Source: Thermodesulfobacteriota bacterium
GTDB taxonomy: Bacteria > Desulfobacterota_D > UBA1144 > Nemesobacterales > Nemesobacteraceae
Reading direction: 5' to 3'
NCBI GenBank assembly: GCA_965209225.1
Contig: OZ242379.1
Span: 1,666,661-1,730,660 of the forward strand
Length of the DNA stretch: 64,000 nucleotides
In this document: positions 41,054 through 55,265 of the stretch, in pieces
Position numbering within the stretch: the first letter of the stretch is position 1
How the letters are laid out: each line of letters opens with the position of its first letter
Made by a program: the position numbers and the translations under genes
The notes under the pieces: model-generated
Seen by the model: only the letters and a program-made list of their open reading frames with translations
What the model was told of the DNA's origin: nothing
The model's database searches: none

Positions 41054-42223
41054 ATGGAGAAGAAAAAGCGCATTGGCACATATCTCAGAAGTTCAGTTGT
41101 AGCGGGAGAGCATTATGATTCCTATATTCCCAAGCCTCTGCCACCTGAACCGCCTCTTGACATGAGAGAACTCTACCCTTTGCTTGATCAGGCAAATGCG
41201 GCGCTGGGACGGCTTGACGGAATGAGTGCGGTTTTGCCTGACACGTCACTTCTTCTCTATATGTATATTCGTAAGGAGGCCGTGCTTTCTTCGCAGATTG
41301 AAGGGACGCAGTCTTCTCTATCTGATTTGCTGTTGTTTGAGACCGCAAAGGCTCCTGGTGTTCCCATGGGAGAAGATGTCGCCTCGGTCTCACGTTATGT
41401 CTCCGCCATGAAATACGGTATTGACCGCATGGAGGGACTTCCGCTCTCCTTGCGCCTTATTCGTGAAATTCATGCCAAGCTTATGGATAGCGCGTGGGAT
41501 GGCCATGTGCGTCCCGGCGAGTTTCGCACTTCGCAGAACTGGATAGGGGGTTCAAGGCCTGGAAACGCGCGTTTTGTTCCGCCTCCTCCCGAGAAATTGA
41601 TGGAGTGCCTCAGAAGCCTTGAGAATTTTCTTCATGACGACACGGTGAGATTACCCGTGCTCGTCAAGGCGGCGTTGGTCCATGTGCAGTTTGAGACTAT
41701 CCATCCGTTTCTTGACGGAAACGGACGTGTTGGTCGATTGCTCATAACTCTCATTCTCTGCGCTCATGGAATTCTCAAGGAACCTCTTCTTTATCTGAGT
41801 CTCTATTTCAAAGTCAACCGTCGGGCTTACTACGATCACCTGCAATCCGTGAGAGAAACGGGAGATTGGGAGGCATGGATTGAGTTTTTTCTGGAAGGTG
41901 TGGTTGAGACAGCTGGTCAGGCAATGGAAACGGCGAAGGCTGTTAAGGACCTGTTCGAAAGGGATAAGACTCGCATTGAGGTGTCCGGCAGGTCGACTCC
42001 CGGGGTCTTAAAGATACATGATTGCCTCAAGCGCTTCCCCGTCAGTAATACGACCGGGATCAAAGAGTTTTGCGGAGTTTCGCTGCCCACTGTGCTTCGC
42101 TGCCTGCTGAGTCTTGAATTCCTGGGGATTGTAAAAGAGATTACGGGCAAGGACCGCCGTAAAATCTTTGTTTACGAAGAGTATCTTGATATTCTGAACC
42201 GGGGTACCGGACCGATTTTTTAG
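41054..42223 (+). CDS. Fic-family protein (N-terminal inhibitory helix, C-terminal wHTH)
   Basis: SSQIEG, HPFLDGNGRVGR. Confidence 0.92.
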   Translation: MEKKKRIGTYLRSSVVAGEHYDSYIPKPLPPEPPLDMRELYPLLDQANAALGRLDGMSAVLPDTSLLLYMYIRKEAVLSSQIEGTQSSLSDLLLFETAKAPGVPMGEDVASVSRYVSAMKYGIDRMEGLPLSLRLIREIHAKLMDSAWDGHVRPGEFRTSQNWIGGSRPGNARFVPPPPEKLMECLRSLENFLHDDTVRLPVLVKAALVHVQFETIHPFLDGNGRVGRLLITLILCAHGILKEPLLYLSLYFKVNRRAYYDHLQSVRETGDWEAWIEFFLEGVVETAGQAMETAKAVKDLFERDKTRIEVSGRSTPGVLKIHDCLKRFPVSNTTGIKEFCGVSLPTVLRCLLSLEFLGIVKEITGKDRRKIFVYEEYLDILNRGTGPIF

Positions 42224-44204: not shown

Positions 44205-46034
44205 ATGTGCGGAATAGTGGGATACGTGGGAAGTTCGGATAGAACCAAAAGCGTTCTCTGCGAAAGCTTGGGGAGATTAGAGTACAGGGGTTACGATTCT
44301 TCCGGGATATGCTTTGTCGAAAACGGCCGTTCCCGCGTCATAAGAAGCAAGGGAAAACTTGAAAATCTTTTCACCAAGCTAAAAGACTGCGAAGTGACCT
44401 CCTCACTCGGCATCGCTCACACCAGATGGGCCACCCACGGCGATCCCTCGGAGCGAAACGCCCACCCTCAGGTATCCGGTCCGATAAGCGTAGTGCATAA
44501 CGGAATAGTGGAGAACTACCCCGAGCTTAAGGAGGAACTTGTTGCTGCAGGTTATGAATTCTGCTCCGATACCGATACCGAAATCATCTGCCATCTGATC
44601 CGCGATTTTACGGAAAAAGGAGACTCTCTTCTTGAGTCAACGAGAAAAGCCTTTGAGAAAATAGAGGGCTCTTACGCTGTGGCGGTCATGTCGGATACAG
44701 AACCCGGGAAAATAATCGCCACCAGGCGTTTCTCTCCTCTTATAATAGCGCGCAACGGAAACGAATGTTTTCTGGCTTCAGACATCCCTGCGATTCTGCC
44801 CTACACGAGGGAATTTATTTTCCTTGAGGATAACGATTTCGTGGTTCTGGAAGAAAACGGCATTTCCGTAACCGACGCTGCCGGCAATGACGTTAGCAGA
44901 GACCCGACGGTTGTGGACTGGGACCCTTCGGTAACCGAGAAGTCAGGATATCGCCATTACATGCTGAAAGAAATTTTCGAACAGCCCGCGGCCATCTTCG
45001 ATACGCTTAGGGGAAAATTCACGGCGGACATGAGGAAAGTGGTTCTTGAGGACTTGAATCCCTCGCTTTTGCGAAACACGCAAAGAATCATTGTCGCGGC
45101 CTGCGGCACTTCCTACCACGCTGCTCTTATAGGGAAGTACATGATAGAGGAAGTCGCGGGAGTGAACACTCAGGTGGAGCTTGCATCGGAGTTTCGACAC
45201 CGAAATCCGGTCGTTGGCCCCGACAGCCTTTTTATCGCGGTTTCTCAGTCGGGCGAGACTGCGGACACCTCGGAAGCGCTTCTAAAGGCCAAGGAACTCG
45301 GTATGAACTCAATCGGAATAACGAACGTTGCGCTGAGCAAAATCTCAAGAGAGTCTGACTGCGTCATAGCTACAAAGGCGGGACCTGAGATCGGGGTTGC
45401 CTCCACAAAGTCTTTCACGACGCAGGTAATGGCGTTCTATCTTCTTTCCGTATATCTCGCGATTTCAAGGAAGACGGTTGATTCAAAAAGGGCTAGGCAG
45501 CTGATAGCCGATGCCATATCGGTTTCAAAACTCCAGCAGGAAGTTCTTGGGCTCGATGAACGTCTCAGGGATATTTCAAGAGATTTTTACGGTTACAGGA
45601 ATTTTATATATCTGGGCCGGGGAATTAATTACCCCGTGGCCATTGAGGGAGCGCTTAAGCTCAAAGAGGTTTCATACATCCACGCCGAAGGATATGCCGC
45701 CGGGGAGATGAAGCACGGTCCCATAGCTCTTATAGACAGCAACATGCCCGTTGTGTTTATAGCTCCGGAGGAAGATGTATATTACAAAAAGCTCCTTGGG
45801 AATTTTCAGGAGGTAAAGGCCAGGGGAGGGCGAATAATTTTCATAACGTCGGATAGAGAGCTTCGACTTCCCGACGAAAGGGACAGGAAGATAGTGATTC
45901 CGAAAAGCTCTTACCTTGTAAGCCCGATGGTATCGGTTATCCCCGTTCAGTTTATGGCTTATCACATAGCCAATATTCTGGGGACGGATGTTGATCAGCC
46001 GAGGAACTTGGCCAAGGTTGTCACGGTGGAATAG
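44205..46034 (+). CDS. glmS: Glutamine-fructose-6-phosphate aminotransferase
   Basis: MCGIVG, HTRWATHG, SQSGET, DQPRNLAKVVTVE. Confidence 0.97.
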   Translation: MCGIVGYVGSSDRTKSVLCESLGRLEYRGYDSSGICFVENGRSRVIRSKGKLENLFTKLKDCEVTSSLGIAHTRWATHGDPSERNAHPQVSGPISVVHNGIVENYPELKEELVAAGYEFCSDTDTEIICHLIRDFTEKGDSLLESTRKAFEKIEGSYAVAVMSDTEPGKIIATRRFSPLIIARNGNECFLASDIPAILPYTREFIFLEDNDFVVLEENGISVTDAAGNDVSRDPTVVDWDPSVTEKSGYRHYMLKEIFEQPAAIFDTLRGKFTADMRKVVLEDLNPSLLRNTQRIIVAACGTSYHAALIGKYMIEEVAGVNTQVELASEFRHRNPVVGPDSLFIAVSQSGETADTSEALLKAKELGMNSIGITNVALSKISRESDCVIATKAGPEIGVASTKSFTTQVMAFYLLSVYLAISRKTVDSKRARQLIADAISVSKLQQEVLGLDERLRDISRDFYGYRNFIYLGRGINYPVAIEGALKLKEVSYIHAEGYAAGEMKHGPIALIDSNMPVVFIAPEEDVYYKKLLGNFQEVKARGGRIIFITSDRELRLPDERDRKIVIPKSSYLVSPMVSVIPVQFMAYHIANILGTDVDQPRNLAKVVTVE

Positions 46035-46157
46035 CATGAAGTTCTGTACGGTTGATTTGCGTCGCAGTCGGAATTAACGGCGGTAATCAAAATGCGACGA
46101 TTGCGAAACAATCTCGGGAAGCATATAATATAGTATACCTAAGGAGGTAGCCTGTTC

Positions 46158-46349
46158 ATGGACGAAACCCTTGTTTTTGAAGTGCTCTGGGATAATGAAG
46201 CTGAGGTGTGGTATACATACGAAACCCCTGTTCAAGGGGCTATGGCTGAGGCTCCGACGCTTGACGAATTATATTCCAAGCTTTCAGTTATTGTTTCCGA
46301 AATACTACAGATGAACCAGCAATTCCCACTAAGTCCTAAAACCCCTTAA
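46158..46349 (+). CDS. DUF1902/HicB-like small protein
   Basis: WDNEAEVW...G..AEAPTLDEL; AAGGAGG RBS. Confidence 0.7.
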   Translation: MDETLVFEVLWDNEAEVWYTYETPVQGAMAEAPTLDELYSKLSVIVSEILQMNQQFPLSPKTP

Positions 46350-46354
46350 AATAA

Positions 46355-46955
46355 AGGGGTTCAGTCGTTTATAAGGATGTACGGATACCTCTCCCAGATA
46401 ATAAACTTCTCCGACATTGAGCTTGAAAAGTCGTTTGTCTTCTTCAGGTATCTCAACAGAAAACTTCCGAAACGCGAATCGCAGCAGTTCGATGCAAGCG
46501 ATATGGTAGATCTTGACTCGCTCAGAATACAGAAAACCCACGAGCACATCGGGGAGCTTGAGAAAACAGATGTATCGCTCACTCCTCCCGAGTTTGAAGG
46601 ATGTGCCGCGTCTGAGACGAAACGTGATCTGCTCTCGGAAATCATAGCCCAGCTTAACAGTGTTCATGGTGTTAACCTTACGGAGGAAGACAGACTTGAT
46701 CTCTCCCGTCTGAACAAGCGCTTAAACGAAGATGCGGAGATGGCAAAGTACATGAATGATGAAAACACCGAGGAGAACAAGAAGAATTTCTTCACAAAAC
46801 AGTTTGACAGCATGCTGATTGACTACGTGAACGAGAGGTTTGATTTCTACAAGAAGATAGAAGAAAACCAGTCGATCAAGGATCTGATATGCCAGATGCT
46901 TTACGCGGGGTATCAGCATAACAGACCATCTATGGTGCTGGGGGATTCAGAATGA
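46355..46955 (+). pseudogene. C-terminal fragment of type I restriction subunit R (HsdR)
   Basis: VQSFIRMYGYLSQII.F.D.ELEK...RKLP...LSEII..LN..HG; no helicase or nuclease part. Confidence 0.7.
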
Positions 46956-48441: not shown

Positions 48442-49755
48442 ATGAAGAATCTGGATAGTGATATTACGGTGGTATTGGTTCTGATGTTAGTTTTTATCTT
48501 GGGCGTTGTTTTTTTCCCTGCTGTTTCTGCGTATGCCGATGCTGGCGGGTCCCACGGGATTCCTCATACAACGGCAGGCGATGCCGCTTCCGCTGCTGAT
48601 GAGACTACAATGAGGAATTTCGTTCTGCATGCGAAACACCACTTGGATACTGCGGCAGAAGAAGGCGCGGTAGAGACTTCGGTGCTCCTGAGGCAGATGA
48701 GGGACAAAGAAGGGGACTGGATAGACGGGTCTGTCTATCTTATTGTAGCGCGGCAAAACGGCTACATCTGGAATCATGGAAAGGATACAAGATCCTTTCA
48801 TGGAACTTCGCTGGGCCGCCATCCAGTTGCGGAGAAACTGCTTGGCGAACTTCGCGGAGGAAGCGTTGATGCAGATCCGGTCTGCGAAGAATACACTCAT
48901 CCGGATGGATCTTTAAAATGGAGTTGCGCTGCTTTGATTAAACCCTTGCTTGCCGGGGGAGAGCCGAATCTCCTAATCGGGGGTCTTGACCACGATGATC
49001 AGTATGTAGACAGACGTGAGTGTCCGGAAGTCAACCCGGAAGTAACGGCCGAGGATGTAATCGCAGGCCAGTATGTAAGCGAAGAGCGCGGCAAGGAAGT
49101 CCAGAAGGATTTTGTAAAGGCGGCGATTCAAAGGGTTGAAAATTTGCTGACTCAGGATCCACCTACACAACAATCACAACAACTCTCACCGCTGCAATAT
49201 GTAATTAACCAGATGGCATGTTTCGGCGAAGGTCCATGGAAGTCAGGACCTATATACGTCTTTGTCATGGTCAAATATTCTGAAGGGGTTCCCACGGTGG
49301 TTTTTAACGGGAACAATCCGGAGTTAACCGGTAGTCCTTTTGAGAATGTTTTTGACGAAGATGGAGTTGACATCGGGCGGGAAATCCTTGAAGTTGCGGG
49401 AGAAGACGGAGAAGGCGGCTTTGTTAAATACAAGTGGGATAACCCTCTTATAGCGGACGACGATGTTCAGGAACCTGGCAGGTCTCCCGGCAGGTCGCCG
49501 AAAATAAGTTATGTTGAAGCGGTGGATTTCACTCAGCTTCCAGGGCTTCTGATCTTCGGTTCCGGTATTTACGGCACTCTTGAGCAAGACAGTGTGAGTA
49601 GTGACGACGGATGTGCGATTGCCGGGTCTGGCGACAACTCTCAAAGAGCTGTATTCAATCTGCTTTTGATAATGTTTTCAATGTGTTGTCTGTCTATCTT
49701 TTGGAAAGGCAGATCGAAAAAACAGAGCAAATTTAATGACGAGGTTTCCGGGTAA
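48442..49755 (+). CDS. Exported tandem Cache-like domain protein with C-terminal Cys/TM/basic anchor
   Basis: Signal peptide; W.DGSVYLIV...G...NH and WKSGPIYVFV...NPEL.G...DEDG...GGFVKYKWDNP...KISYV...FGSGIY; tail DGCAI...FNLLL-TM-KGRSKK. Confidence 0.7.
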   Translation: MKNLDSDITVVLVLMLVFILGVVFFPAVSAYADAGGSHGIPHTTAGDAASAADETTMRNFVLHAKHHLDTAAEEGAVETSVLLRQMRDKEGDWIDGSVYLIVARQNGYIWNHGKDTRSFHGTSLGRHPVAEKLLGELRGGSVDADPVCEEYTHPDGSLKWSCAALIKPLLAGGEPNLLIGGLDHDDQYVDRRECPEVNPEVTAEDVIAGQYVSEERGKEVQKDFVKAAIQRVENLLTQDPPTQQSQQLSPLQYVINQMACFGEGPWKSGPIYVFVMVKYSEGVPTVVFNGNNPELTGSPFENVFDEDGVDIGREILEVAGEDGEGGFVKYKWDNPLIADDDVQEPGRSPGRSPKISYVEAVDFTQLPGLLIFGSGIYGTLEQDSVSSDDGCAIAGSGDNSQRAVFNLLLIMFSMCCLSIFWKGRSKKQSKFNDEVSG

Positions 49756-49837
49756 TATCGGAAGCCTGAGTTGATTTGCCTGTTTCGCGATCCCGAAATA
49801 CGATGCCGCAAACCGGAGAAGAAAATAAGAAGAAAAT

Positions 49838-51161
49838 CACTAGTGTCTTGATGTTAATCAAACAATTTCAGCTGGTTATGATACACTGAGTCTGGAGACA
49901 AATCCAGTCCTTTCGTAAGTAACTGATTTAACGGTATTTTTTCAAACAGGGTCAGGCTCAAAATCTGCAAAATTGTGTGGAAACTATGCTCAAGCCCAAG
50001 ACGTTTTTTTATGATCGCTATGAGAACATAGACTGAAACCGCTATCCATATCTGGGATTTCACGGCGTTCTCCGAGGTTCCATAGAAACTCTTGATTCTC
50101 AGGTGCTGCTTGATCCATTTGAAGAACAGTTCAACATGCCACCGATTCCGATACAGTTCACAAATGGTAATGGCAGGAAGCGAGAAGTTGTTTGTAATGA
50201 AAGTGAGGGTCTTATCACGTTCCTTATCCCGATACTTTACTGCTCGTAAGGAGTCGGGGAAATCTTTGATGCTCTTTGGGCCTGAGAGTTTAATTGTCCA
50301 GTCGTAGATAAGTCCTGTGGAACGGTCCACCTTGTGGGATTTAATCCGGCGGTACTTGGTGTTCTTTTTGGCTCGCAGAACAAAGAAGCACATTGACTGG
50401 TGGAGGCGATACAGGCGGGTGAAGTCAAGGTAGGCTCTGTCCATAACATAAAAGGCTCCGGGTTCGAGAATGATTCTGTCCAGAACATTGACATCGTGGA
50501 GTTTGCCATCGGAAATGTGAATGAAGGCAGGGATATAGCCTTGCAGATCAAGCAGTGTATGGAGTTTTACGGCTGCTTTGGTTCTTCGGAAATTAGCCCA
50601 CGAGAATAAATTGAGACAGAGGTCTATGGTCGAGTGCGTAGACAGTGTCGGGGATATCAAGCCCGTTGTCATCGTCACGATAGAGCAAGCGGGCTTTACG
50701 GATAAGGTGCTGTGCGAAATCCGCGTAGATTTGCCAGTTGCGATTTCTGTTTGCGACAGCAAGAGTACTGCGTGATATGCCGCTTGAGATTCCCATGTGA
50801 TAGAGTTTTTTTGCTTGGGGCGCGCAGGCAGGTTTCTACGTCGCGAAGGCTATCTCTGTAGGCAAGCTGTGCAAAGGCCATACAGCGATACTGCTCCGCG
50901 CAGAAGAACGATTTGACTTTGTGATTGCCGTTATAACGTTTTACGTATCTATGGAAAGTATCCCACGGAAGATGCTCCATGAGCTGAGAGAAAACCAGTT
51001 TCCCCGTGTACATGATATCTGCCTCCTGTTATGCTGATAGATACAGGTATCATGGGAAAGTGAACTTTAAACTTCAAGTCCGACGCATCCTTTAACGGCT
51101 GTTTTATCTTTGTAGTCAGGTGGTTACAACACACTCAGCTCAAAACGTCGGGACAGTAGTG
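49838..51161 (-). mobile_element. IS4-family insertion sequence
   Basis: 18-bp TIRs cactagtgtcttgatgtt / cactactgtcccgacgtt (14/18); 9-bp TSD gaagaaaat at 49829-49837 and 51162-51170. Confidence 0.92.
49854..51013 (-). pseudogene. IS4 transposase (DUF4372 + DDE), split by two frameshifts
   Basis: Homologous parts lie in three frames (50696-51013, 50593-50796, 49854-about 50630); YRNRWHVELFFKWIKQHL. Confidence 0.88.
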
Positions 51162-51358
51162 GAAGAAAATAAAGAGTTGCGGTCTTGGCCGCATTTATGA
51201 TATATCACTTTGTAAGGGTGGTGGCAGGAGATATTGGTTCTGTAAGTAGCCGTCAGGGGGACATTGTGACGTAGATCACCGGTAAAAACTATCCCCCTGC
51301 TCCGCCACCTCCCTGTTCAGAGTGACGAAAAAATAAAAAATACGGAGGTGTAATCAAA

Positions 51359-52774
51359 ATGCGTGAGACGGTTGCAAGTCTGTTTTTTGCCTTGTTGTTC
51401 GTTTTTTCTTTTAGTGTCGAGGCATCCGCTCATGAGGGCGATCACGATGAGAGCAGTGGTAAAACCGCGGAAGGTATTGCTGACCTCACAAGTGAAGAGG
51501 AATTGAAGGCTTTTCTTGCCCACATAGAAGAGTATTACAAGCAGAGAGAAGACGACACCCCCGGGACGCTGGCTGTGCTGCGCAGGGCACTCAGGGAGCA
51601 GGGAGAGTATGCAGATTTCGAGAGAGACATATACTTATTCAGCATAAACCAAAGGGGCACTGTAACGAATCACGCAAAATATCCCGAGTTTCTGGGTTAC
51701 AAATTCAATCGGGAATCGGATTCTGAGATAGCACAAGTAATAGAATATTTCATTAACCAGCCACATATTGTTCCTATTCCGGGCGGAGATTTTACCAGGA
51801 CCGGGATGAAGGTATGCAGAAGATACGGCGATGAGAAGCCGGGGTACGATAACCGGAAGCGGATAGCCTGCGCGGTGAATGCACTCATTTCCACAGGACC
51901 GGAAACGATCATAGTTGGTCTGCACCATGAGAGGGAGGAAAGAGTTTTTACGCCTCCTGACTGCTCCGGGTTTGAGCTCGGTACTCCTGCTGAGGATGTG
52001 TTTGAAGACCCGAGTGACGGCAAGCTTGAAGCCTATGTAAAAGGGGTTATAAGGGTAGCGCAGCAGCAGATGAGAGATGCGGGAAGAGAGTGGATCCGCG
52101 AGACCAAAGAAGAAGGAGGGCAAATCCCCAGAATCTTTGACGATCCAAATTCACCCGAGTCAATAAATGTTGCAAGAGCTATAACGCTGAGATTTTATGA
52201 CAAAATCTCCTGTTATGGAACCAGCGAACACCTTAAACACGGGAACATATATTCTTTTATAATGAATGCGGATCCTTCCTCCCCCACAGTGGTTATGAAC
52301 GGAAACGATCCTGATCTGAACGGAACCAATCTTGAAGCGAGGGACCCTTACCTGCCGGGAGAGCCGAAGATAGCAGATCTGTTTAGCGAAAAATTAGGGG
52401 CACCGGCCTCCGGAAATTCAGATTACGTCAACTATCACTGGGATGACCCCAGCAATTCGGACGATAACATTTCAGATTTTCTCGAAAGAGGAACAGTTCC
52501 GGGAACTTCATGCAAAAGAAGCTATATTGAGGTTGCGAATATGACCGCACTCCTCAGCGAGCTCCCTGAATTCAGAGGTGGCTCTGACTCCGAATGGCTC
52601 TGGATTTTCGGTTCAGGAACTTATCCAGGAGATGATGTATGTGAGGGTGAGGGTGATGATGACGGAGGATGTGCGATCATGGGGGCGGGACATACTTATA
52701 AGGGCGCATTGTTTAACCTGCTCCTTACGGTTTCTGTTCTTTTCTCGGTTGTTTTCCTGAAAAGGCGTGCGTAG
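51359..52774 (+). CDS. Exported tandem Cache-like domain protein with C-terminal Cys/TM/basic anchor (paralog of 48442)
   Basis: Signal peptide; IYLFSINQRGTVTNHAKYPE, IYSFIM...NGNDPDL.G, YHWDDP...KRSYIE...IFGSGTY; tail GGCAI...LFNLLL-TM-KRRA. Confidence 0.7.
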   Translation: MRETVASLFFALLFVFSFSVEASAHEGDHDESSGKTAEGIADLTSEEELKAFLAHIEEYYKQREDDTPGTLAVLRRALREQGEYADFERDIYLFSINQRGTVTNHAKYPEFLGYKFNRESDSEIAQVIEYFINQPHIVPIPGGDFTRTGMKVCRRYGDEKPGYDNRKRIACAVNALISTGPETIIVGLHHEREERVFTPPDCSGFELGTPAEDVFEDPSDGKLEAYVKGVIRVAQQQMRDAGREWIRETKEEGGQIPRIFDDPNSPESINVARAITLRFYDKISCYGTSEHLKHGNIYSFIMNADPSSPTVVMNGNDPDLNGTNLEARDPYLPGEPKIADLFSEKLGAPASGNSDYVNYHWDDPSNSDDNISDFLERGTVPGTSCKRSYIEVANMTALLSELPEFRGGSDSEWLWIFGSGTYPGDDVCEGEGDDDGGCAIMGAGHTYKGALFNLLLTVSVLFSVVFLKRRA

Positions 52775-52939
52775 GAAGCTTTGCAATACCGTCAGTTTCG
52801 GTGTTCTTCCTCGGTCGGTAAAAGGAACTTACGGAGCGGGTTTTTTGTTCGGAAGGTGAAATCTAAGCCGAACTTCACTTAGCAAATCCACAGATTGATC
52901 AATAACGACGGGACTTCCTGTCTTTCTCGTTTGGCTCGC

Positions 52940-53169: not shown

Positions 53170-55265
53170 CACGGTCAATTCACCCTGGAGGCGCATTTTG
53201 GGGTGATATTGGGAGGCCTCGGGGCATTTTTCTTGTGGTCGTACCGGTTTTCTGCCTCAGCACTGTCCGATTTACCTGAAATCCTCCTTTTCAGACGTAG
53301 AATTCCGTCCTGAAGACGCAATTGTTCTGTAAAATCTCAGATTTTTTTGAAAATCACGGACTCTTCGCAGGAAATCCCCTCAGGGCGAGAGTCCTATAGC
53401 GCGCAACGCTTCCTCTCTGTTTTCCGAAAAGTGCTGAGCGGCCCTGGGAACACTCTTGAACTTCCTTTTCTGCCCCAGTATCACCGCAAGCGCTATGTTG
53501 TTGCACACAGCGTTGTTCGCAGGCCCATTGTTCACGCGCGTCGTGCTTCCGTCCTCACCGAAAGTGACGTCACGGCGATAGTGGTTCTTGCTCTCCACCG
53601 CCCAGTGTCCCCTGTTCCACTCAAGCAGCTGCTGCGGGGGAGCCCCCTCGGTGTCCACGGACGTAATCCCGTAGGCGTATTCCAGACTCTCTTTTTGCGT
53701 CTTTACGTCTTTTGACCAGCGTCTCACCTTGAAAACCTGCTTTACGTGCGGATAGTCAGTCAGGCGGAAGTACGAATTCATAACCACTATCGAACGCTGC
53801 TCTATTCTTCCGTGCCCCTTGCTCAGCTTCTCCGTAAAATGCCCCGTAGCGTCATTCTTCCAGTCAAGCGCTCTGAGTCTCTCGTACGCCAAAGAACTGT
53901 TGCCTTTAACCGTGAACATGTAGTCCGCCTTATGGGTCCTGACAATCACATCAGCGGTCTTTTTCGTTGTGTGCAGAGCGTCAAGGGTTATCACTTTCCC
54001 CTCAACGCTTGCCTCCTCAAGCAAGGCGAGCACCGCCGCCACCTCTCCTCCCTCATCTCTGAGATCAAGACTCCCAAGAGGCATTCCGCTTACGTGATCA
54101 ACCAGGGTTACCACCTCATAGTGATTCTCCCCGTTTCTGTTTGCCCCGCGTATTCTCTTGCCGTCAATCGCCACTGCCTTGGCAAGTTCCATCTGCGGCT
54201 TGGTGAAACGAGAAACCACGCTCTGGAACTTCTGGGTGTCCAGATTCTTTACCACTCTGTGCACCGTGGCTTCCGAAGGAGCTTCATATCTCTGTTTCTC
54301 CTTGTTGTACCAGGCCCCAAGCAGCGCAAGCTCCTTCTGCGAAAGACTTTTTCCATACTGCGCGGCCGAAACCGCTCCCTTGTTGCCGCATAAAACAGAG
54401 AGAATGTAAATGGACATCACACACTCCACCCTGTGCTTTCTTCCCTGACCCCTTCGGAAATCAGGTATATCCTTTAACGCCTCGTAAAGTGAAGAAAGTT
54501 CCTCATCCGAACGACGCGTAACCGCTCTTTTTGCCTTCCACTCATCCCCGAGGGAATCAGCGTTGCGAAGCATTTTCTTTGCGTTTCTGCGCAGCGGATA
54601 AACGTAGAGTTCCTTTATCTTTCCGTGAGGCTCCGTGTAACGACCGTTGGAACGGGCGTATCCCCTGGAGCGTCCAACGAACTTCCAGTTCGACGCCTTG
54701 TACATGGCTCCGTCAAAGTGAGCGGGGTCAACGAAGCTCTCGGCAAGCAGCAGGCCGTGCCCGTAGAACTCCACCCAGTCCTCACTCAGCCTTCTTGTCA
54801 TGCAGGACAGAAAGTGGGAAGCCAGATTGGGAAACTCCCCCGCTTCGCCCAGTATCAAAAACCTGGTGTTGTTCCCTATAAGGTGGAGGTTTTTGAACTG
54901 AAGCTCCTTTTTCCATTTTATCCAGCGGTCGCGGGGAGCGCACATAAAAGCTCCTGCCTGCCACGCGGCAATGCCAATCCATTGCCCATCATGCTCAGCT
55001 ACGTAGCGTATACCCCGACCAACTAACTGTTTGAAACCGAGGTAATGATGTTCGTTCATCAGCGCGTTCCACTTGGGGACCTCATCGGAACGCGCTACTC
55101 TTACTATGACCTTTGCCAGGGAGAATTCCGGGTGATCGTGTTGTGATTTGGTATCCATGTTTACAGGTTATACACGCAAACATGGAAAAAAGCCAGAGCC
55201 TTTTTTTTAACTTCCCCCAAATCTTGAATAAAATTACCCCCGATAGCTAGCGTGAAATGACCGTG
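53170..55265 (-). mobile_element. ISAs1-family insertion sequence
   Basis: TIRs cacggtcaattcac / cacggtcatttcac (13/14); 10-bp TSD gatcccgccc at 53160-53169 and 55266-55275. Confidence 0.88.
53380..55158 (-). CDS. ISAs1 transposase with N-terminal DUF4338 (DruA-like) domain
   Basis: HHYLGF...NNTRFLIL...ESFVDP..F.G.MYKASNW; DFRRGQG, AIDGK, TLDALHT, KGN, HWAVE...RDVTFGED. Confidence 0.9.
   Translation of the reverse strand: MDTKSQHDHPEFSLAKVIVRVARSDEVPKWNALMNEHHYLGFKQLVGRGIRYVAEHDGQWIGIAAWQAGAFMCAPRDRWIKWKKELQFKNLHLIGNNTRFLILGEAGEFPNLASHFLSCMTRRLSEDWVEFYGHGLLLAESFVDPAHFDGAMYKASNWKFVGRSRGYARSNGRYTEPHGKIKELYVYPLRRNAKKMLRNADSLGDEWKAKRAVTRRSDEELSSLYEALKDIPDFRRGQGRKHRVECVMSIYILSVLCGNKGAVSAAQYGKSLSQKELALLGAWYNKEKQRYEAPSEATVHRVVKNLDTQKFQSVVSRFTKPQMELAKAVAIDGKRIRGANRNGENHYEVVTLVDHVSGMPLGSLDLRDEGGEVAAVLALLEEASVEGKVITLDALHTTKKTADVIVRTHKADYMFTVKGNSSLAYERLRALDWKNDATGHFTEKLSKGHGRIEQRSIVVMNSYFRLTDYPHVKQVFKVRRWSKDVKTQKESLEYAYGITSVDTEGAPPQQLLEWNRGHWAVESKNHYRRDVTFGEDGSTTRVNNGPANNAVCNNIALAVILGQKRKFKSVPRAAQHFSENREEALRAIGLSP

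Follow-up and report, generated by a model that had tools for sequence, protein, structure and literature searches.

Tandem sCache_2 proteins without a signalling output, predicted as surface-anchored binding proteins in a Candidatus Dadabacteria genome

Tandem Cache modules and their ligand pockets

The window analyzed here, a stretch of 64,000 nucleotides from the genome of a Candidatus Dadabacteria bacterium (GenBank assembly GCA_965209225.1, contig OZ242379.1, positions 1,666,661 to 1,730,660), contains two intact open reading frames (ORFs) downstream of purD, gene A (protein P0001, 437 amino acids [aa]; 48442..49755, + strand) and gene B (P0002, 471 aa; 51359..52774, +), whose products consist of two Cache modules in tandem and possess no signalling output domain. 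We propose, with about even confidence, that these proteins are cleaved at a C-terminal sorting tag, lipid-anchored at the cell surface, and serve as binding proteins at the interface with a sponge. P0001 and P0002 are 27% identical across 477 columns (E = 2e-27) and have the same architecture: a hydrophobic N-terminus with an AxA end, two alpha/beta modules, and a tail comprising a GC-A-I motif, a transmembrane (TM) helix and a basic end. Both had been picked out beforehand in a reading of the bare sequence (the sequence-only reading), and both ORFs are real. The predicted Sec signal peptides, called by eye from the sequence, cover residues 1-32 of P0001 (48442..48537, +; AYA end; helix 7-23 in the model) and residues 1-24 of P0002 (51359..51430, +; ASA end before HEG).

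The modules have the sCache_2 fold. Module 2 of P0001 (residues 198-377; 49033..49572, +) matches the Pfam families sCache_2 (PF17200; 28.8 bits, cut-off 25) and dCache_2 (PF08269), both above cut-off; P0002 does not reach the sCache_2 threshold, and its sole Pfam match is to dCache_2, below cut-off (21 versus 26.5). Module 1 (residues 41-184 of P0001; 48562..48993, +) has no Pfam match and is homologous to module 2 (hhalign 98.4%, E = 4.5e-15). We rejected a single dCache_2 domain spanning the whole Pfam model, because the dCache_2 matches are limited to about positions 90-160 of its 298 and each module has its own N-terminal helices. When a profile built from 102 homologs was compared with the PDB, only four sequences were found at E <= 0.1, all of them sCache_2 chemoreceptor domains. 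The AlphaFold2 model of P0001 (pLDDT 86.8) contains two helix-plus-sheet modules, and Foldseek returned 4k08, 2qhk, 4exo and 5g4y as the top structures for the whole model. A separate model of module 1 of P0002 (51458..51928, +; pLDDT 82.9) found the same four structures within its top five, with a TM-score of about 0.5. The Pfam match of module 2, the structural matches of the models and the homology between the modules bear out the Cache fold assigned in the sequence-only reading, and structure prediction returned this fold rather than another. The motifs listed in that reading are present as well, though not each in both repeats: YLIV..NH belongs to module 1, and IYxF..NGN, YxWDxP, KxSY and IFGSGxY belong to module 2.

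Two pairs of Cys residues co-vary perfectly in the 102 aligned homologs. Cys148 and Cys162, both in module 1, are jointly present in 98 and jointly absent in 4; Cys194, in the linker, and Cys260, in module 2, are jointly present in 90 and jointly absent in 12. This strict pairwise gain or loss supports two predicted disulfides per protein, so that the proposed disulfide stabilization is likely. Pfam scans of the 17 ORFs of the family found no HAMP, MCP, kinase or cyclase domain, in agreement with the missing signalling output noted earlier. Stand-alone Cache domains have been termed highly unusual, with more than 90% fused to outputs (PMC12889525). The stand-alone sCache_heme proteins treated there likewise possess a Cache domain without an output module; they have a CXXCH heme motif and likely redox roles, whereas P0001 and P0002 contain no visible CXXCH. 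With the sCache_2 chemoreceptor domains (PscD, 5G4Y; Adeh_3718, 4K08; Vibrio parahaemolyticus, 2QHK/4EXO; Helicobacter pylori TlpB, 3UB6-9), the family shares the fold, the sequence match and, in part, the Tyr/His/Tyr/Trp/Lys ligand positions. It differs from them in its tandem modules with disulfides, an invariant Asn in place of the module 2 His, the lack of a TM-HAMP-MCP output, the predicted cleavable signal peptide and sorting tag, and the number of its paralogs, 17.

PscD contacts propionate through Tyr90, His103, Tyr143 and Lys156 and sandwiches it between Trp92 and Trp145 (PMC5062169). We mapped these positions by alignment, not by docking: in the HMM alignment, Y90/W92/H103/Y143/W145/K156 correspond to Y272/F274/N289/Y330/W332/K354 of module 2 in P0001, and module 2 of P0002 (51974..52624, +) has the same Y-F-N-Y-W-K set. 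Module 2 keeps five of the six PscD-type positions, with His replaced by Asn; Y272, N289, Y330, W332 and K354 are invariant in 102/102 homologs, and F274 occurs in 99. Module 1 (Y99, I101, H112, Y151 and K159 in P0001) has Tyr and His, mostly also Tyr and Lys/Arg, and both sandwiching aromatics are missing. Among the 102 homologs, Y99 is found in 102, H112 in 101, Y151 in 86, and Lys or Arg at position 159 in 88. Within this genome, we counted the 19 two-module units, leaving out one single-module ORF. Their median identity is 27%. The complete module 2 set is found in 18 of them; in module 1, all 19 possess the Tyr and His, 15 the Tyr151 and 13 a Lys/Arg. Specificity is known to switch with the residue at the His position, where Leu leads to lactate binding (PMC12415202). 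Since this position acts as a switch, the Asn of module 2 may select another small acid or amide. In TlpB, our alignment places an Asp at the His position, which we take to play a role in urea binding.

The remainder of the protein diverges. A family gene lies near glmS/purD in four of five relatives' loci; compared by position as the only guide to orthology, it is 42-47% identical, versus 84-95% for glmS and purD. For the coding part of gene B, the best DNA match in 35 other genomes of the genus is about 70% over a partial length. Because the carboxylate-binding positions are nearly invariant at about 27% identity elsewhere, the predicted pockets appear to be conserved, not diversified, and diversification to lie in the rest of the protein. 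The sequence-only reading had described diversified ligand binding; the predicted ligand-contact positions lend this no support, being conserved more strongly than any other part of the family.

A putative Cys-type sorting tag and its possible exchange with a lipobox

Both proteins end in a tail with a Cys, a TM helix and a basic end, located at 49603..49722 (+) in gene A, with the invariant Cys391 at 49612-49614, and at 52658..52771 (+) in gene B. This tail terminates 24 ORFs of the genome, 16 from the family and 8 others, and all eight of the latter carry LRR, Calx-beta or Spondin_N domains. Its Cys is invariant in 23/23 tails of the genome and in 102/102 homologs. The genome encodes a single CPBP protease; it is closest to the myxosortase models, and its scores would make it a relative of the myxosortases, not a member. 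A type II secretion system (T2SS) cluster with GspD, E, F, K and pilin-like genes is also present. In a survey of the order (101 genomes), the tail profile found matches in 67 and the protease was present in 85; 63 of the 67 possess both. The four genomes with a tail and no protease are 59-90% complete, and in one family of the order both components are missing (6/6). These data are consistent with the tail and the CPBP protease forming a putative cognate pair. We prefer to interpret the tail as a Cys tag for sorting that can be cleaved off, rather than as an anchor that stays in place. The surface display that had been assumed is probable.

The layout resembles that of MYXO-CTERM and its myxosortase MrtX (bioRxiv 10.1101/2023.06.07.544157 and PMC11980579). 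Both systems have an invariant Cys, a TM helix and a basic tail in that order, dozens of clients, one unlinked CPBP protease, and a T2SS. The tag described here matches no model; it differs from MYXO-CTERM by a single Cys rather than GCGC, by F-N-L within the TM segment, and by its phylum. JDVT-CTERM is characterized by a DP motif nine residues after the Cys and by one client next to the protease (bioRxiv 10.1101/2023.06.07.544157); with no DP in the alignment, 24 clients and an unlinked protease, the present tag falls outside this definition. Synerg-CTERM and CGP-CTERM are grouped with MYXO-CTERM and JDVT-CTERM as the closest sorting systems. That the Cys of MYXO-CTERM-type tags is lipidated is so far a hypothesis (PMC11980579).

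A minority of the homologs carry a lipobox. We examined 238 homologs and scored the anchors of the 217 that were sufficiently complete, using a lipobox rule of our own. The script assigned 185 to tag only, 26 to lipobox only, 6 to neither and none to both; after four proteins (P0133-P0135 and P0166) had been moved by eye to tag only, the counts were 189, 25, 3 and 0. On a midpoint-rooted FastTree tree, for which we claim no direction of change, the lipobox state changes seven times. The lipoprotein paralog of this genome has a recognizable tag remnant directly after its stop codon, out of frame; in P0123 and P0124, to which it is closely related, the tag is intact and the signal peptide is of the normal type. 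These findings suggest that tag and lipobox may be alternative, interchangeable lipid anchors.

All 13 long ORFs examined in five genomes (12 double-unit and one of 719 aa) contain an internal tag between units, the junction running from a full tag through a basic loop to a second hydrophobic segment with an AxA-H end. A sortase-like protease and signal peptidase would cut such polyproteins into two anchored proteins; alternatively, the junction could be retained as a two-helix membrane hairpin. MXAN_5598 provides a precedent for an internal tag in a fused gene (PMC11980579). Two further observations concern these polyproteins. The second units of those at L012:3005-5572 and L013:3008-5506 are identical over the aligned columns and the first units 61% identical, which we read as a recent exchange between distant loci, by recombination or gene conversion. 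One relative (L037, G015:C4:683500-694000) has three double-unit genes in tandem.

Distribution, proposed mechanism and competing explanations

The family amounts to 17 ORFs in this genome (11 standard, 3 double-length, 1 lipoprotein, 1 single-module, and 1 fused to Spondin_N/cadherin/FN3), and the genome-wide count thereby substantiates the suspected expansion. With P0001 as the query, relatives were found in 16/19 genomes of the genus and in 0/12 other genomes of the order; Pfam sCache_2 matches occur in 30/35 other genomes of the genus and in 10/65 others. A contig scan with the lipoprotein paralog as query recovered two loci only. The taxon-named homologs are Ca. Dadabacteria (three named rows in one search, two in another), and two sponge metagenome runs, X5 and X6, contain near-identical DNA. 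Neither MCPsignal nor dCache_1 has a match in the genome, which possesses three response regulators over cut-off and, at three of eight HATPase places scanned, kinases without Cache domains.

Tandem sCache_2 proteins that lack an output domain occur in other organisms as well. In the relative P0239, three modules are joined to an autotransporter. A wide search with one P0239 module gave 2698 cluster representatives at E <= 0.001, and 148 of the best 150, which were listed, were new. The domain scan took in the 78 of these with at least 400 aa, the other 70 being shorter. None of the 78 has a HAMP, kinase, MCP, GGDEF or EAL domain; autotransporter domains were found in 4, type IX secretion system (T9SS) domains in 5, FlgD-Ig in 3, and PKD, cupin and SIMPL in 1 each. 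Among the relatives from the best 150 of 2698, 192 of 236 modules possess the canonical His. Taxa from 5 of 20 clusters looked up were Rhodothermaceae/Bacteroidota, Holophagales, Rhodospirillaceae, Nitrospinota and Latescibacterota, and look-alikes in the Atlas were Cache families only, with Acidobacteriota, Chloroflexota or Methanobacteriota as the commonest taxa. One 90%-identity cluster of Cache-autotransporter proteins, that of P0256, has members labelled Rhodospirillaceae and Nitrospinota, reflecting either cross-phylum transfer or mis-binning.

The eukaryotic-like surface proteins of sponge symbionts (LRR, Calx-beta, Spondin_N, cadherin, FN3, SRCR) have the tag in common with the family; one Cache unit is fused to Spondin/cadherin/FN3, and one paralog adjoins an SRCR gene. 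In contrast to those proteins, the repeated unit here is a bacterial sensor fold. The term 'Cache' is absent from the main text of a survey of about 1200 metagenome-assembled genomes from sponges (PMC8163846), and its enrichment is noted only for sponge Thaumarchaeota, where it is proposed as a host-recognition candidate (PMC7848895). Our literature search found no description of the family or the tag; subscription papers and supplements, which lie outside that search, may list it.

We envisage the following course of events. As a first step, the proteins would very probably be exported by the Sec system and folded with two disulfides. The tag Cys would then probably be lipidated and cleaved by the single CPBP protease, creating a C-terminal lipid anchor. 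Transfer to the outer face through the T2SS, as for the LRR/Calx-beta/Spondin proteins with the same tag, seems rather likely. On balance, the pocket would still take a short carboxylate group, with the canonical His of module 1 and the Asn of module 2 at the specificity position. The last step is the most tentative, with a likelihood slightly under even: the arrays, whose pocket is constant and whose exterior varies, would act at the host interface in multivalent binding or in recognition and not in signalling.

Several observations weigh against this proposal. Both tails match 0 NCBIfam families at E <= 10, the CPBP protease scores below every myxosortase cut-off (MrtP 80 versus 250; Mrt_core 72.9 versus 100), 22 of the 85 protease-bearing genomes have no tail match, and the tail matches outside the genus are weak. 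P0133 would fall into the 'both' class were its Cys part of a lipobox, and the sign test on anchor swaps is not significant (about five of six independent pairs the same way, none opposite; p = 0.0625). Canonical sCache_2 pockets take free C2-C3 acids, not macromolecules. Pocket conservation may be partly structural, with Y143, W145 and K156 possibly kept for the fold, and a conserved Tyr in TlpB does not contact the ligand (a caution given in PMC5062169). Nor is the architecture confined to sponge symbionts, because Methanobacteriota are the commonest known taxon in some output-less tandem Cache clusters. The wide search, of whose 2698 representatives the best 150 were listed, ranks multi-repeat proteins first, so that receptor-linked sCache_2 proteins could occur lower in the list. 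Finally, P0335 has the source label 'histidine kinase', and Pfam shows Cache domains only.

Among other explanations, it is unlikely that the proteins scavenge or buffer free short carboxylates (acetate, pyruvate, lactate, glycolate), be it to concentrate nutrients at the envelope or to soak up a small molecule derived from the host. The pocket positions match those of C2-C3 carboxylate sensors, the genome has two SSF-family transporters, and one paralog adjoins an acetyl-CoA synthetase-like gene. However, TRAP DctP was not found in the genome, and no carboxylate-transporter family was present in the 35 of 53 paralog-neighbouring ORFs that were scanned (E <= 1e-12). PscD affinities are 23-356 μM (PMC5062169), and the explanation would not account for the existence of 17 paralogs or for their fast divergence around a pocket that stays the same.

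We consider it slightly less likely again that the proteins form a variable surface coat or decoy. The pocket ligand would then only stabilize the fold, and the exteriors, by their divergence, would hide the cell from phages or from phagocytes of the host. The low identity of the paralog units (median 27%) and of the syntenic genes (42-47%), the partial-length match of about 70% for gene B, the switching between lipobox and tag, and the tandem fusions would all fit such a coat, but two separately conserved pocket types (His and Asn) exceed the needs of a scaffold.

Very unlikely, in our view, are periplasmic accessory sensors that act in trans, reporting to a separate kinase whether ligand is bound. 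A sensory role is the norm for Cache domains, most of which are fused to outputs (PMC12889525), and a HAMP kinase lies about 10 kb from one paralog; this kinase, however, has its own periplasmic binding protein next door. Furthermore, only three response regulators score over cut-off, the 35 of 53 neighbours scanned include no kinase, and relatives are autotransporter or T9SS passengers, i.e., located beyond the outer membrane.

Truncated, decaying chemoreceptors, to which the nearest solved structures, those of chemoreceptor sensor domains, and the insertion sequence between the genes might point, are highly improbable and largely refuted by the intact frames, the conserved pocket and Cys pairs, the presence of the family in 16/19 genomes of the genus (one query), and a topology that combines a cleavable signal at the N-terminus with a sorting tag. 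Among the homologs scanned in the wider clade, none of receptor length was seen; a search for longer homologs, in itself weak evidence, gave one protein among 7988 scored candidates (896-2555 aa).

Genomic setting and implications

Genes A and B are separated by an IS4-family element (49838..51161, -), whose transposase is split over two frames (50696-51013 and 49854-50762) and which is flanked by a 9-bp target duplication (49829-49837 and 51162-51170); six further near-full-length copies are present elsewhere in the genome. One contig of run X7 has the empty site. Because this contig joins the site, the two genes are neighbours without the IS4 element, and the insertion recognized earlier is confirmed. 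Promoter and terminator scans remained at chance level (3 versus 5.4; 6 versus 4.4).

Contigs of X7 and X9 that match gene B at about 98.5% raised the possibility of its horizontal transfer, which we dropped because these runs also contain glmU/glmS at about 98% and no near-identical copy exists in 35 other genomes of the genus. In contigs of the same two runs, position 52912 connects back to 51212 (short side, 40 bases), which hints that related strains may have gene B duplicated in tandem. Between glmS and purD lies an ORF of 192 aa (46377-46955, +). Related strains in X7/X9 skip 46032-46951, and purD is only about 82% identical there, with glmU/glmS at about 98%; this suggests a possible recent insertion with allele replacement at glmS-purD.

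The window also contains an ISAs1-family transposase with an N-terminal DruA/DUF4338-like domain (53380-55158, -), of which L033:1900-3675 is a near-identical ORF, and an ORF (41054-42223, +) with a Fic-like HPFxDGNGR motif recognized by eye. Another Fic-domain gene adjoins a Cache paralog (L018:1166-2710). Other paralogs have as neighbours an SRCR-domain protein directly upstream of the lipoprotein paralog (L022:4393-5592, -), an animal heme peroxidase family protein (L011:683-2458, +), and two tandem secreted unknown proteins of about 330 aa (L016:1496-3963) together with an orphan tag fragment (G000:C1:1620282-1620509).

A bolder reading, improbable as a whole, would be that an sCache_2 clade has turned from chemosensors to surface adhesins across several sponge-symbiont phyla, each lineage using its own display route (Cys tag/T2SS, lipobox, autotransporter, T9SS) and recognizing carboxylates of host molecules, with some Dadabacteria copies as self-processing polyproteins that yield two separately lipid-anchored adhesins. 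An example of a host target would be the pyruvylated trisaccharide that occurs in sponge glyconectins (PMC7828597). If this were true, the lipobox/tag exchange would be comparative evidence for Cys-CTERM tags as inverted lipoprotein signals.

We regard the sCache_2 fold and Cys-CTERM sorting as known parts and their combination in this family as new. The exclusion of lipobox and tag and the polyproteins with internal tags are natural test substrates for the hypothesis of Cys lipidation in MYXO-CTERM. Cache domains are usually treated as input modules of receptors; here, 17 genes for apparently surface-displayed arrays are found in a small genome without an MCP domain. If these arrays bind host molecules, they would constitute an overlooked class of symbiosis factors that annotation pipelines file under 'sensing'.

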